DNA of 64,000 bases from Methylovulum sp. (GTDB taxonomy: Bacteria > Pseudomonadota > Gammaproteobacteria > Methylococcales > Methylomonadaceae). Below, one piece after another: positions 2,930 through 7,611 of the stretch. Each line of letters opens with the position of its first letter. Within the stretch, counting starts at the first letter, position 1. The DNA lies in assembly GCA_028712695.1 (NCBI GenBank), contig JAQTQZ010000016.1:8678-72677 (forward strand), written 5' to 3'. The position numbers and the translations under genes are program-made. The notes under the pieces were generated by a model. It did no database searches and was not told where the DNA came from. It saw nothing but the letters and a program-made list of their open reading frames with translations.

Positions 2930-3797
2930 CTATATGATAATTTTGCTATTTAATTTTAAATCCAAAAACTGCGGGTAGTCTCTTATATACCCAATTAACT
3001 TGAAGACACCGTGTTGATATTTTAAAAATCATATATAATTCAATCTATTAATAGCATATCGATACGGTATCTTGAAAGGCGATGGGTATATAATCGGCAG
3101 CCTGGTAAAGCTCAGACGCCAAAACCAGACAAATAGCGCCGCTGGAAAAATTATTCAGCTCCCGCCAAATACCCGGCACTATCTGCAAAGCATAATGCGG
3201 CCTGTTTAAGGAAAAGGTCTTTTTTACCGTGCCATCATCCAGCTCAACGTCAAAGCTACTGGCCTGAAAGCCGTTTTCGTCAACGATCACTATGAAATTC
3301 TTAAGGTTGTGGTGCGCCGCAAAAAGCGCACCCTCGCAAATAGGGCCTTCATTGATTTCGCCATCACCCACCAAGGCGTAGGTTTTTTGACCGGTGCCGC
3401 GTAGCTTTGCCTCTATCGCCATGCCGACGTCGACCGAGAAGCCGTGGCCTAATGATCCAGAAGTCACTTCTAAGCCAGAAACACGCGAATCAGACAAGCC
3501 TTTTAAATCGCTGCCATCAGCGAAATAATTCGAGAACGCCTCATTCTTAAGCCAGCCCAATTCACGCAAACACGCGTATTGAGCCATGATGCCATACCCT
3601 TTGCTGAGTACGAAGTAATCACGCTCTGTGGCAAGCGGGTCGTTATAGGGATAGCGTAAATGATTTCGGTATAAAACAGCCAGGAGCTCGATGATTGAGA
3701 ATGCACATCCGATATGGACGGTTGAGCCTGCATAGGCCATATCCAATACCGTTTTACGCAGTGCTTTGGTATTAAATGCGTGAGGATGTGAAGTCAT
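2930..3797 (-). pseudogene. Chimeric pseudogene: transketolase N-terminal subunit fragment fused to the C-terminal half of an FdtA/WxcM-like cupin, interrupted by a MITE
   Basis: Transketolase-N motifs (HIGCAFS, DYFVLSKG, VTSGSLGHG, GDGEINEG) up to ENGFQA, then 57 aa that are 56/57 identical to the cupin at 7183-7611; degenerate residues (SKGYG for SKGHG, ICE for IWE). Confidence 0.85.
2988..3088. mobile_element. 101-bp MITE, IS630/Tc1-like (TA duplication)
   Basis: Bipartite TIRs TACCCA-N6-TT(G/C)AAGA(C/T)ACCGT at both ends; TA at 2986-2987 and 3089-3090; removing it restores the cupin reading frame ...ADYIRDYPQFLDLKLNSKIII*. Confidence 0.75.
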
Positions 3798-3809
3798 AGC
3801 CGACAATTC

Positions 3810-3977
3810 TCAGAAGTTGATACCGAGATAGCTCTCGATTTTACTGGTCGCAAAATCCAACATCTCCTTGGTCAGAGCTGGCTGCACGCCAATCCAGAAG
3901 GTGTTCTTCATCACATTGTCGGTATTGGTCAAATTGCCGCTGATGCAGTAGCTAGCAATCATTTTTATAGTTTCCAT
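3810..3977 (-). pseudogene. Orphan 3' end of rfbH/ddhC (55-codon remnant)
   Basis: Translates [55 protein letters not shown]; 3850-3944 matches 4918-5012 at 90/95 nt. Confidence 0.85.
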
Positions 3978-4062
3978 AATAAATTCGTTTCTTTTGAAAA
4001 ATTAAAGCTCGATAAGCACAAAACTTGGCGAGGCTTATTGGATCGGCGGCTTTCATGTCGTT

Positions 4063-4476
4063 TTAATCTAGCTGATTCACCACTATCTTCGCAAATTCTG
4101 TGAAGTCTGCTAGGTGGTTTTTTACAATGCTGTGAACAATATGCCAGTTGATGGCATCGTAGTTATGCACGGCAATATTGCGAAAGCCAACGGCTTTTTT
4201 CAGGCTAAGCGCCAGCGCTACAGATAATATCCCTGCTTGTGCAAGTCTATCGAACGTTTGGCCCATTGTATCCGGCGGCGGCACGTCCATACCCGAAATC
4301 AGATGTGCACCAATGTCCACACATAACTGCACGGCTCGACTGAGGTTAAGCGAGACTATGTCTTGTAGATCAAAGTCTGTAATTAACGTATCGGCTTCCG
4401 GAGGGCACTTGGTTTCGATGCGTTGTAAACAGCGACGCAGCGCCTCCAGTTTTTGCTCGACTACTTCCCGATCCAC
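4063..4476 (-). CDS. HepT-like HEPN ribonuclease toxin (DUF86)
   Basis: RX4HXY motif (GFRNIAVHNY), QLCVDIG, 137 aa, overlaps upstream nucleotidyltransferase. Confidence 0.85.
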   Translation of the reverse strand: MDREVVEQKLEALRRCLQRIETKCPPEADTLITDFDLQDIVSLNLSRAVQLCVDIGAHLISGMDVPPPDTMGQTFDRLAQAGILSVALALSLKKAVGFRNIAVHNYDAINWHIVHSIVKNHLADFTEFAKIVVNQLD

Positions 4477-4874
4477 GCCGCCCGCCTTTCTGCTAATACC
4501 CGGTTGCGATACGGCATAAAATCGGCCTGTTCAAACAAATGTCGGCTAATCAACTGCCCATACTCACCATCACTCCCCAGCAGGCGACGACCATGCTGCA
4601 CGATTTGGCCCAATAAAGGCTCGGTTGCCACTTTCAAATCTATCAAGTCAACAGGGCGACCGATTTGCTCTGCCAACGCGGCGATGAGGTCCATTTTCTG
4701 ATCCGCTGTCAGCGCCTGTTTGGCGGCTACCGCAATGTCCAAATCACTGTCTGCGCGTTGCCGTCCCGAGGCGACCGAGCCAAACACCAGCGCCAGCACC
4801 AGTTCAGGAAAGCGCGTCAACACTTCCTGCAGTTGCTTGTCGATATCAGGTGCTGTGGTGTTAACAGTGGTCAT
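4461..4874 (-). CDS. MntA-like minimal nucleotidyltransferase antitoxin
   Basis: GSX10DXD motif (FGSVASGRQRADSDLD), VDLIDL; paired with HEPN gene. Confidence 0.85.
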   Translation of the reverse strand: MTTVNTTAPDIDKQLQEVLTRFPELVLALVFGSVASGRQRADSDLDIAVAAKQALTADQKMDLIAALAEQIGRPVDLIDLKVATEPLLGQIVQHGRRLLGSDGEYGQLISRHLFEQADFMPYRNRVLAERRAAWIGK

Positions 4875-4877
4875 GGC

Positions 4878-6641
4878 TTAAACTTTCACGCCCAGATAGC
4901 TTTCGATTTTCTCTACTGCAAAATCCAACATCTCCTTGGTCAGAGCTGGCTGCACACCAATCCAGAAGGTGTTGTTCATCACATTGTCGGTATTGGCCAG
5001 ATCGCCGCTGATACGGAAGTTGGCCCCGATCATGTAAGGCTGGCGCGTAAGGTTACCGGCAAATAGCAGGCGCGATCCGATTTTGTGTTGATCCAGGTAG
5101 GTCAGCAGCTCCAGCCGTGTGACGGGACTGCTTTCTTTCACGGTGATGGGAAAACCAAACCATGAGGGGTCAGAGTGTTCGGTTGCTTCAGGCAGATGCA
5201 AAAAGGCTTCGCAGCTTTTCAGGCGTTCTTTGAGATAGGCAAAATTGTCTTTGCGAGCCTGGATAAACTGTGGTGCCTTGTCTAGTTGCGCCAGTCCACA
5301 GGCGGCCTGCATGTCAGTGATTTTAAGGTTGTAGCCTAGGTGGCTGTAGGTGTATTTATGGTCGTAACCCTTAGGCAAGTTGCCTAATTTAAAGCAAAAG
5401 CGTTTGCCGCAAGTGTTGTCTTTACCTGGCGCGCAGAAGCAATCACGTCCCCAATCGCGGAAGCTTTCGGCAATTGTTTTAAGCTTTTTGCTGTTTGTAA
5501 ATACTGCGCCGCCTTCACCCATGGTGATGTGGTGCGCCGGATAAAAGCTTAGCGTGCCGATGTCACCAAATGTGCCTACCATCTGGCCGCGATAAGTGGT
5601 GCCTAGTGCATCACAGCAGTCTTCCACTAGCCAAAGGTTGTGTTTTTTACACAAAGCCATGACCACGTCGAGGTTAAAGGCGTTACCCAATGAATGCGCC
5701 AGCATGATGGCTTTGGTCTTAGGGCCAATGGCCGCTTCGATTTTGCTGGCATCGATATTGTGCGTTTTAGGATCTACATCCACAAATACGGGCACTGCAC
5801 CAAACTGGAGTATGGGATTGACGGTGGTTGGAAAACCGGCCGCCACACCGATAACTTCATCGCCCGGCTTGATAGCCCGATCGCCCAGTTTAGGAGATGT
5901 CAGGGTGATAAACGCGACGAGGTTGGCTGAAGAGCCGGAGTTGACAGTAATCAGGTGCTTAACGCCGATGAAAGCCGCGAGCTTTTCCTCAAATTTGGCG
6001 TTGAAGCGGCGGCCTGTAGTGAGCCAGCCGTCGAGGGCTACCAACTTTAGGCGGGACAGTCTGAGGTTAAGCCGTTCGTGGTGAGCTTGTCGAACCATGA
6101 ACGGTTTAACCGTCCACCCTTCGACAAGCTCAGGGCGAACGGTTAAGCCTAGCAACTTGTCCCGCCTAAAGTTGGTAGCCCCGTCGAGCGAGGCTTCGAC
6201 CATATTTTTGATCTCTTCGGCACCGATGACCTTGCCTGAAGGTGGAATAACGCTGGTTCCTGGAACAAAAGCAGTGGAATTAAATTTATGTACCGCAAAG
6301 TTCTCCACGTTAAACGCAGTCGCTTTTCGTAAAACTTCATCCAACTTTGTTGTATTGAGGCTGGCAACTTTCCTGCAAATCTTGCTTTGTACGGTAATTA
6401 CCTTATCAACACGAACTACACTTTCCTGTTTTAGCGCTCCTTCTGCCAGATCAACGGCGGTAATTTTGACAGCAGAGGTGTCGTAGATGTAAGAGTCAAC
6501 TTCAGTGGTGATAAAAGCTACGTTTAAGTCATCAAAAATACTACGCTGATTAATCCCGATTACCAAGCCAGGACGAACCTTGCTGCCTGCCCGGTTAGTA
6601 TAAGGAAAATCCAAGAGAACAACATCACCGAGCCTTAACAT
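4878..6641 (-). CDS. rfbH: Fusion protein: N-terminal PemK/MazF-like toxin domain + CDP-4-keto-6-deoxyglucose 3-dehydrase RfbH/DdhC, with a 51-aa MITE-derived in-frame insertion
   Basis: N-term [24 protein letters not shown]...AFITT...RVDKVITV (PemK-like); RfbH motifs [44 protein letters not shown]; ATG at 6641 with GGAGG RBS. Confidence 0.85.
6036..6180. mobile_element. 145-bp MITE with 23-bp perfect TIRs and 8-bp TSD (IS1595-family-like), carrying an internal REP-like inverted repeat
   Basis: TIR GGCTACCAACTTTAGGCGGGACA at 6036-6058 and its reverse complement at 6158-6180; TSD CCGTCGAG at 6028-6035 and 6181-6188; inner IR 6072-6094/6120-6142 (20/23). Confidence 0.92.
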
Positions 6642-6879
6642 CAAATAACTCCTCCCAGTTAACATCATTATCATCTTCGGTATCAAAAAAACTGCTCAGT
6701 CCAATGGCCTGAAATTCCTGTTCAGAATTAGACGCTCCGGCGTGGAATGATTGGGCCACCCCACTCGCCTGATCATCTTTATCCAGGACGATAACAAATA
6801 ACTCAGCTTCACTTACACCTACTAAGGGAGTCAGCAGATGAATATTGCCTTCTTTATAAACCGCCTTTACAGCTTGCAT
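6625..6879 (-). CDS. Putative antitoxin, DUF104/AF2212-like N-terminus
   Basis: [19 protein letters not shown] resembles the AF2212-like fold start; acidic C-terminus; 3' end overlaps the PemK-RfbH start; aggag RBS. Confidence 0.6.
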
Positions 6880-6926
6880 TGTAGGTCTCCTTTGTTCGTT
6901 TGGTAGTCCGCAATTTGTTTCAAGGC

Positions 6927-7145
6927 TCATAGTTGAATGCCGGTTTGTCGCGCAATCGTCAGCACAGGCGCTTCGGGAGTGGCGCGGTTAGCAATGGTCT
7001 GATCAGTTTCAAATAACAGGTCAATATCGCCACCCTTTTTGGTGTCGTCGGTACGCGAACCAAAAAGGATGACCCGCACGTCTTTGCCCAGCACCGCATC
7101 AGCAGTTTGTTTGATGGCTTGAATTTGTTCTTGGGTTAGGCGCAT
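6927..7145 (-). pseudogene. Minimal nucleotidyltransferase, apparently internally deleted
   Basis: [11 protein letters not shown]...[18 protein letters not shown] motif; only 72 aa, IANRA runs directly into TPEAP; no HEPN partner follows. Confidence 0.6.
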
Positions 7146-7182
7146 GGCGGTGTTTTGATAAGTTTTAGATGGCTTCAATTCG

Positions 7183-7611
7183 TTATTGACTGGCTTTTAA
7201 AGCCAAGAACTGCCGATAATCCCTTATATAATCAGCCGCTTGATAAAGTTCGGAAGCCAGAACCAGGCAAATTGCGCCGCTGGAAAAATTATTCAGCTCC
7301 CGCCAAATACCGGGGACTATCTGCAAAGCATAATGCGGCCTGTTTAATGAGAAGGTTTTTTTTACCGTGCCATCATCCAGCTGAACGTCAAAACTGCCGC
7401 CAGCGGCAACCAAAAACTGTTGTAAGTCGTAATGGGCATGGCCGCCGCGTGATTCGCCGCCCGGCACATCGTAAAGGTAGTAGATCCTTTTTATGTCAAA
7501 CGGAAAATGCTTTTTTCCTTCGACAAAAGTAATGTTGCCCGATTGGTTATGGACTTTCGGAAGTTCAACGATTGCACAATCAAACACGGTGGTTTTGTTA
7601 TTCGGCTTCAT
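7183..7611 (-). CDS. FdtA/QdtA (WxcM-like) cupin, sugar 3,4-ketoisomerase
   Basis: [48 protein letters not shown]. Confidence 0.85.

Follow-up and report, generated by a model that had tools for sequence, protein, structure and literature searches.

The toxins of type II toxin-antitoxin systems are normally small free proteins. The Escherichia coli antitoxin MazE, which belongs with the toxin MazF, possesses a disordered acidic tail containing a tryptophan. In a different context, the Rickettsia palindromic elements are short palindromic mobile elements that reside in coding genes, where they keep the reading frame open and add a peptide segment to the product. Here we analyze a locus of Methylovulum sp. 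(assembly GCA_028712695.1, contig JAQTQZ010000016.1) in which a MazF-type domain, also called PemK, is fused in frame to the sugar dehydrase RfbH downstream of a small overlapping gene, its putative partner, whose product carries a tail resembling that of MazE. A miniature inverted-repeat transposable element (MITE) interrupts the rfbH part of the fusion. The window, i.e. the whole stretch of DNA analyzed, measures 64,000 nucleotides (nt) and all features of the fusion locus sit on its minus strand. The pathway concerned builds the O-antigen, the surface sugar that decides phage adsorption and serotype. Full-text literature searches returned no description of a MazF-RfbH fusion, nor did a survey paper of the MazF family mention one, and the layout is apparently undescribed in the literature. 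We conclude with high confidence that the window contains a representative of a conserved family, characterized by a MazE/MazF-like pair that resides in cytidine diphosphate (CDP)-sugar operons with its toxin welded to RfbH.

The MazF-RfbH fusion and its partner gene

The fusion and its parts are listed below, residues being numbered on the version of 587 amino acids (aa) that begins at ATG 6641 unless the 602-aa version is stated.

6625..6879, minus strand: small partner gene, candidate antitoxin, 84 aa (ATG at 6879, stop at 6625)
4878..6641, minus strand: MazF-RfbH fusion open reading frame (ORF), 587 codons plus stop (ORF scan, Pfam, NCBIfam and alignment)
6354..6641, minus strand: MazF/PemK-fold domain, aa 1-96, with R23, P24, T45, S74 and K80 (Pfam PF02452)
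6267..6353, minus strand: junction helix, aa 97-125, with the invariant R105 (AlphaFold2 and alignment)
6036..6180, no strand assigned: MITE of 145 bp (inverted repeats, 8-bp target-site duplication)
4881..6026, minus strand: core of RfbH (E1, CDP-6-deoxy-L-threo-D-glycero-4-hexulose-3-dehydrase), aa 206-587 (phmmer, NF011936)

Delimited mechanically, the fusion ORF spans 4878..6686 and encodes 602 aa from a TTG codon. The likely start is ATG 6641, which lies 8 nt after a GGAGG sequence, yields 587 aa and agrees with the starts in all relatives. The product corresponds to a MazF-RfbH family protein of ~535 aa enlarged by a MITE-encoded insert of 51 aa and by one extra arginine; with the insert gapped, it is 90% identical to its homologue P0001. 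A promoter and terminator scan of the locus gave signal at background level only.

The N-terminal domain belongs to the MazF/PemK family by several lines of evidence. The Pfam PemK_toxin profile, whose cut-off is 23.1 bits, scores 37.0 bits (E 4.4e-9) at aa 20-121 of the 602-aa version and is covered from position 3 to 104 of its 109 positions. A PDB profile search using 31 N-terminal domains retrieved the MazF proteins of Staphylococcus aureus, Bacillus subtilis and Mycobacterium tuberculosis over their full length, with E-values of 1e-4 to 2e-3 for the first two. The AlphaFold2 model of the domain (predicted local distance difference test, pLDDT, 89.4; predicted template modelling score 0.83) shows the MazF/CcdB-type beta-barrel followed by a C-terminal helix, and in a Foldseek search of the PDB ranks 1-50 were all MazF toxins (E from 1.5e-6, template modelling scores of 0.6-0.8). 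Both hallmark motifs, KVRP (R23) and ITT (T45/T46), are present, and R23 and T45 align to R25 and T48 of B. subtilis MazF in the PDB profile search. From the MazF-RNA structure of that species, we take R23, T45, S74 and K80 to correspond to R25, T48, S73 and Q79, the first two being the presumed catalytic residues. Among 90 fused proteins, representing at least five very divergent subtypes, R23, P24 and T/S45 are each conserved in 89, S/T74 in 87 and K80 in all. The closest non-fused relatives of the domain are ordinary PemK/MazF proteins of 105-125 aa sharing 33-41% identity with it, and a search of representative proteins with the domain alone found mainly standalone PemK-like proteins and fusion fragments, not full-length fusions. 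The free-standing state of ~105-125 aa, otherwise typical of MazF, is not encountered in this family, whose ~90 protein clusters all carry the domain joined to RfbH.

The C-terminal moiety is an RfbH protein. The DegT_DnrJ_EryC1 profile of Pfam matches aa 212-594 of the 602-aa version (E 3.9e-101), and the RfbH equivalog NF011936 scores 716.9 bits for a cut-off of 423, its match being split into two stretches because of the 51-aa insert. With phmmer, the Yersinia pseudotuberculosis E1 structures 3BCX and 3BB8 are recovered over aa 203-585 (E 2e-189), with ~70% identity to 3BCX. Standalone RfbH proteins of 440-447 aa (P0063, P0102 and P0107) and residues 4-56 of 3BCX align with the fusion from about residue 97 onwards. 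In the AlphaFold2 model, residues 97-119 form one uninterrupted helix; R105, which belongs to it, is invariant whether or not a protein is fused. Because the standalone proteins align from this point and the model displays one helix there, the C-terminal helix of the MazF fold doubles as the N-terminal helix of RfbH.

The fused frame is not an artefact of assembly. The best-matching public sequencing run is a landfill metagenome, which is probably the source of this genome, and the Logan contigs derived from it come from a second assembler. These are identical to the window over 4926-6093 and 6121-7303 at ~10x depth, and span the PemK/RfbH junction as well as both junctions between the MITE and the gene; the break between them coincides with the core of the MITE, a sequence of extreme abundance in the landfill sample. 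An earlier note, made from the sequence of this stretch alone, had proposed a complete-looking PemK domain with the KVRP arginine and the ITT threonine, joined in frame to RfbH at the native N-terminal helix of the latter, and an 84-aa gene whose overlap with the beginning of the fusion recalls a type II toxin-antitoxin operon. The profiles, alignments and models described above bear out the domain and its point of fusion, the independent contigs reproduce the junction exactly, and the overlap is real, measuring 17 nt. The fusion gene is translationally coupled to the small upstream gene.

The partner protein has more than 110 homologous clusters, all named 'hypothetical'. In the AlphaFold2 model, pLDDT reaches 74-79 for aa 1-30, falls below 50 for aa 38-73 and amounts to 57 for the whole protein, too poor to justify a fold search; the prediction is therefore a moderately confident beta-rich N-terminus followed by a disordered remainder. 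Partner proteins diverge down to 15-30% identity, yet every one of them terminates in an acidic stretch where a tryptophan is invariant: W75 is present in 37/37 sequences, four very divergent subtypes included. On sequence and predicted structure, the tail is disordered, acidic and provided with an aromatic anchor. Such a build, with a structured N-terminus, a disordered acidic tail and an invariant tryptophan, is the usual one of MazE/PemI-type antitoxins. The label 'DUF104-like' that the earlier note gave to this protein finds no support: neither Pfam nor NCBIfam matches the protein of the window, and an AF2212-like match occurs in only 3/37 homologues, weakly, with a best E-value of 0.07. 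One UniRef record labels a homologue DUF2281. The protein falls in none of the described antitoxin families considered, namely AbrB/MazE, RHH, Phd, DUF104/AF2212-like and DUF2281.

Distribution, selection and exchange of the cassette

The architecture recurs widely. Among the best 120 database homologues of the fusion 89 are fused, mostly with lengths of 533-540 aa, and ~90 protein clusters share the layout, with examples in Methylovulum, Methylobacter, Contendobacter, Rhodoferax antarcticus and Rugosibacter aromaticivorans. It is hidden in public annotation because every record reads simply 'RfbH'. Related loci were searched for with an alignment of the RfbH N-terminus: the best 80 named RfbH loci, counting one genome per species, comprise seven with the fusion (Methylobacter, Rugosibacter, Rhodoferax, Mariprofundus, Thiodictyon, a Gallionellales and another Pseudomonadota genome) and 73 without the domain. 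Fusion carriers amount to 3/400 genomes spread over the class and to 2/22 in the genus of the window. The distribution is patchy, as expected of O-antigen genes. Other apparent RfbH fusions, observed in ~10 high-GC loci, were discarded, since there the frame merely happens to stay open across the end of rfbG.

The partner gene accompanies the fusion almost without fail. A separate ORF of 71-105 aa overlaps the start of the fusion at 12 distinct loci (L009, L010, L013, L015, L016, L018, L032, L034, L040, L048, L097 and L111) and also at L046, from a second Rugosibacter genome. Wherever the upstream genes lie on the DNA that was fetched, the partner directly follows rfbF-rfbG, in five subtypes and in two complete genomes of cultured strains. 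All assessable loci have the partner gene save L081, where the tail alone survives. The trio formed by the small gene, the MazF domain and RfbH is conserved in the CDP-sugar operons of many Gamma-, Beta- and Zetaproteobacteria. In L081 (908-2074) the partner is nearly all deleted, and what is left, the tryptophan-bearing C-terminal tail REDALWESYVRH, extends RfbG in frame at its end; in this single case the MazF domain has lost its conserved lysine (K80). The arrangement could represent either decay or a tether between RfbG and RfbH.

The ratio of nonsynonymous to synonymous substitution rates (dN/dS), computed between the window and three close relatives, is 0.11-0.19 for the MazF domain, 0.05-0.13 for the small gene and 0.015-0.06 for RfbH. 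Both halves of the fusion are thus under purifying selection. Two metatranscriptomes contain transcripts from relatives for both the small gene and the junction region.

The two halves do not share the same history. Over 4005 pairs, the identity of the N-terminal domains is uncorrelated with that of the RfbH moieties (r = -0.10), and extreme pairs combine 98% identity in RfbH with 18% in the domain, others 81% in the domain with 69% in RfbH. In L034, which originates from another genus, positions 900-1500 contain an intact small gene of the window type (918-1172) and the first seven codons of a toxin of the window type. Next come a second, dissimilar small gene (1257-1487) and the fusion, in which RfbH is joined to a MazF domain that likewise differs from the window type. 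Immediately upstream of this scar, at ~700-900, there are MITE-like repeats. L016 carries a decayed remnant of an L034-type replacement. Because of the uncorrelated identities, the L034 scar and the L016 remnant, the small gene and the toxin domain can be said to constitute a cassette that is swapped by recombination between near-identical rfbH alleles, the fusion being restored each time.

The locus in its genome

Additional features surround the fusion in the window.

6880..6925, minus strand: last ~44 nt of rfbG, upstream edge of the relic block (blastn against L009, L010, L016 and L032)
6927..7178, minus strand: orphan nucleotidyltransferase fragment, MNT-type antitoxin (Pfam NTP_transf_2, E 6e-4)
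4461-4874 and 4063-4476, minus strand: MNT and HepT genes of an intact toxin-antitoxin pair (Pfam Polbeta, E 1.8e-19; HepT-like, E 2.9e-27)
3810..3977, minus strand: orphan second rfbH 3' end, 55 codons (3850-3956 is 91% identical to 4918-5024)
3048..3806, minus strand: truncated gene of the transketolase N subunit and C-terminal fragment of FdtA (Pfam Transketolase_N aa 14-181, FdtA aa 164-240)

Homology to intact CDP-sugar operons is confined to a block of 3.66 kb at 3262-6925. At 6925 it begins with the end of rfbG and at 3262 it stops at about codon 196 of the 273 of the transketolase N-subunit gene, a protein that tblastn matches over aa 1-196 only. In between, the small gene is followed by the fusion with its MITE, the MNT/HepT pair, the orphan rfbH 3' end and the truncated transketolase gene running into the FdtA fragment. 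The block is embedded in an O-antigen locus of the ATP-binding cassette transporter type, with Wzm, Wzt and two FdtA-like genes on one side and a family 2 glycosyltransferase, GtrA and a radical S-adenosylmethionine gene on the other. The FdtA fragment at 3087-3257 shares 90% identity with 7225-7395, located at the end of the complete FdtA gene 7183-7611; copies of the FdtA 3' end therefore stand at both ends, and the relic block is flanked by diverged direct repeats.

The pathway context of RfbH consists of rfbF, encoding the glucose-1-phosphate cytidylyltransferase, and rfbG, encoding the CDP-glucose 4,6-dehydratase, and it is missing here. A tblastn search of the whole genome, rated 99.98% complete, found neither gene and returned only distant partial paralogues of 25-39% identity; likewise, it detected no matching transketolase C subunit in the genome. 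Because rfbF and rfbG are absent from the genome, RfbH appears to be without substrate supply.

The enzyme itself is interrupted. A recent insert of 153 nt breaks up the invariant motif SLDG|WLTTG, lengthening the protein by 51 aa (ATNFRR...LKLVALDG) between the residues that correspond to G56 and W57 of E1. It is made of the 145-bp MITE, bounded by perfect terminal inverted repeats of 23-24 nt, and of an 8-bp target duplication, CCGTCGAG, found at 6028-6035 and 6181-6188, and it is in frame and free of stop codons. Inverted repeats, a target-site duplication, multiple copies and the lack of coding capacity define it as a MITE. Full-length copies at 80-94% identity are present by the dozens in the congeneric genomes G001, G004 and G005, and the five that were examined all lie outside rfbH; the one in rfbH is the sole full copy in the genome of the window. 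The MITE core (~6066-6141) reaches a word depth of >20,000 in the landfill metagenome, and because of this depth the family can be called very abundant in the landfill community. No MITE-free allele with an empty site was found in the contigs of the source run, which drop rare variants, and its absence is thus not proven. About 20 nt from the MITE, a tandem CGC-CGC at 6007-6012 creates an extra arginine (R160), giving GRRF where all 120 homologues have GRF; it is confirmed in the independent contigs. None of these homologues has either the insert or the additional residue. The earlier note had described the RfbH motifs as intact, which is accurate for the histidine motif of the pyridoxamine 5'-phosphate (PMP) site and for the C-x-C-x7-C cysteines of the iron-sulfur (Fe-S) cluster, both present, and inaccurate for SLDG|WLTTG, split by 51 aa, and for GRRF with its extra arginine.

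Given the absence of rfbF and rfbG, the truncation of the transketolase gene and the MITE insert, the RfbH half is probably a relic in this genome, its enzymatic function being idle. Several observations weigh on the opposite side. The fusion ORF is still open. At 298 conserved columns, RfbH deviates at two only, the extra R160 and P270A, and as no private changes exist at conserved columns beyond these, decay is not demonstrable in that way. Since RfbH shows no decay beyond the MITE, the extra arginine and P270A, the loss is recent or some constraint is left. The MITE and its duplication total 153 nt, so that any insertion keeps the frame, and the one of six combinations of phase and orientation that is free of stops is the one observed. 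Finally, rfbF and rfbG could reside in unassembled sequence. The earlier note had also suggested that the toxin is tied to O-antigen sugar synthesis; this does not apply to the present genome, where rfbF and rfbG are absent, RfbH is interrupted and the transketolase gene is truncated. The two roles that the note envisaged for the fusion, an addiction device or a link between toxin activity and the state of the envelope, are conjectural. This copy is a degraded example, with its enzyme half interrupted, and a poor exemplar for biochemistry. The genes of both toxin-antitoxin pairs of the block, partner/MazF and MNT/HepT, are intact, and the genome constitutes a natural experiment in which the toxin-antitoxin half outlived the pathway.

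The MNT and HepT proteins are 94% and 89% identical to those of L010, and the same position is occupied in L010, L016 and L032. In the window, the pair is bracketed by two diverged rfbH 3' ends, 3810-3977 and 4878-5045, sharing 91% nucleotide identity, and an orphan rfbH end follows HepT in L016 also. This suggests that the MNT/HepT cassette may have arrived with a piece of foreign rfbH. The MNT fragment at 6927-7178, just upstream of the small gene, is 46% identical to a 69-aa ORF located after HepT in L010. Elsewhere, an AIPR abortive-infection gene adjoins the fusion in L018 (5627-7315) and an SLFN/AlbA_2 ATPase in L010 (9351-10517).

Competing explanations and comparison with known systems

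Overall, the locus is best explained as a type II toxin-antitoxin module resembling MazE/MazF, with RfbH covalently attached to its toxin, and we regard this explanation as the probable one. With moderate confidence, the domain may be considered an active RNase neutralized by the partner tail, and the module a selfish or defensive element locked to the enzyme. The MazF domain would be an active, or at least RNA-binding, endoribonuclease silenced by the tail of the small protein. As an addiction or defence module locked onto a biosynthetic gene, it would damage that gene upon removal; with toxin and enzyme in one piece, shedding the module would break the pathway. Loss or replacement of the operon, for example by serotype-switching recombination, would then leave a long-lived enzyme-bound toxin to poison the cell. 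Rival cassettes would displace one another, leaving orphan antitoxins as anti-addiction scars such as that of L034. The genome of the window would exemplify the end state, with the pathway eroded around the module and both toxin-antitoxin pairs surviving. That an active MazF RNase checked by a tryptophan-tailed partner renders CDP-dideoxyhexose O-antigen operons self-addictive can be put forward only tentatively.

Some facts sit uneasily with a toxin-antitoxin module. PADLOC holds no model for the fusion protein or for the partner, and the latter has no sequence match in the PDB either, nor does it belong to any described antitoxin family. MazF works as a dimer with composite active sites, and the fused domains would need to pair on the RfbH dimer. 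In P0105 the Arg-Pro motif is lost and the partner gene is intact; the presence of the partner does not track catalytic competence there.

In the main rival explanation, the domain is a domesticated, non-toxic accessory of RfbH serving either as an RNA-binding autoregulator of the operon mRNA or as half of a docking pair that assembles the pathway enzymes. The fusion point is constant and the architecture stable across deep divergence, the partner matches no antitoxin family and is kept where the Arg-Pro motif is lost, and its tail fused to the RfbG C-terminus in L081 would tether RfbG to RfbH. However, the catalytic arginine and threonine/serine and the RNA-contact serine and lysine positions are kept in 87-90 of the 90 proteins, which docking alone would not demand. 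The domain and the partner fall below 30% identity and are swapped as a cassette where RfbH exceeds 90%, a behaviour of toxin-antitoxin genes and not of a co-adapted accessory. Moreover, 73 of the best 80 named RfbH loci do without the domain, and L081 is a single case whose domain lacks K80. Domestication is consequently an unlikely explanation, albeit one to be taken seriously.

A special case of the active-toxin reading is anti-phage abortive infection, in which the RNase would be released when a phage using the O-antigen as receptor disturbs expression of the operon or degrades the partner. Defence-type genes do gather beside the fusion, MNT/HepT in the window, L010, L016 and L032, AIPR in L018 and SLFN/AlbA_2 in L010, and the MNT protein matches PADLOC candidate systems. 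This clustering may merely reflect the nature of O-antigen loci as recombination hotspots, and the fusion and the partner have no counterpart among the PADLOC models. We judge this variant improbable.

The possibility that the shared frame has no meaning at the protein level, RfbH being translated separately from an internal start near the junction, is very improbable. A TTG codon, that of the leucine in KLDE, does exist near the point where standalone RfbH begins. It is not preceded by any Shine-Dalgarno-like sequence, and no methionine, valine or leucine start is conserved across the family at this position. Furthermore, the reading frame stays open through every cassette exchange, and the junction helix is under purifying selection (dN/dS 0.05-0.24).

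The accidental deletion-fusion envisaged as an alternative in the earlier note, or an assembly chimera, private to this genome, is excluded in spite of a visibly scrambled locus (gene fragments, duplicated gene ends and a MITE), since the identical fusion residue is found in ~90 clusters and in complete genomes of cultured strains such as Rhodoferax antarcticus and Rugosibacter aromaticivorans, the dN/dS values are far smaller than 1, independent contigs cover the junction exactly and the three-part layout, far from unique to this assembly, recurs in many lineages.

Considered as a MazE/MazF-like module joined to RfbH, the locus can be compared with four described systems. MntA-HepT (MNT/HEPN) is present as the intact pair directly downstream and travels with the fusion in several relatives; its fold and mechanism are unrelated, and it is a neighbour and not a component of the fusion. 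The insertion in rfbH is similar to the Rickettsia palindromic elements as the MITE keeps the frame open and adds a peptide segment, but it belongs to another family, with an 8-bp duplication and repeats of 23-24 nt, and represents one private insertion in a pathway already lost. With RfbH/DdhC/E1 of Yersinia pseudotuberculosis (3BCX, 3BB8), the fusion has in common the PMP-site histidine motif, the Fe-S cysteines and the N-terminal helix; it differs by the MazF domain of ~96 aa in front and, in this genome, by the 51-aa insert, the extra arginine and the lack of rfbF and rfbG.

The remaining comparison is with MazE-MazF and PemI-PemK (Kis-Kid), whose PF02452 toxins include EndoA/YdcE of B. 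subtilis, MazF of S. aureus and MazF-mt3 of M. tuberculosis. These systems share with the locus the MazF fold, the arginine and threonine residues and a small overlapping upstream gene, together with the fast divergence and cassette-like mobility that the toxin/partner pair of the fusion displays. Unlike the antitoxins of these systems, the candidate partner lies outside the MazE, AbrB and PemI families, and the pair is located inside a biosynthetic operon without an intergenic promoter region of its own. Whereas MazF toxins are free proteins of ~110 aa, the domain forms the N-terminus of a 535-aa PMP/Fe-S sugar dehydrase; if the proposed explanation is true, a MazF-type RNase welded to a metabolic enzyme would give selfish or defence modules a novel means of anchorage in a host pathway.

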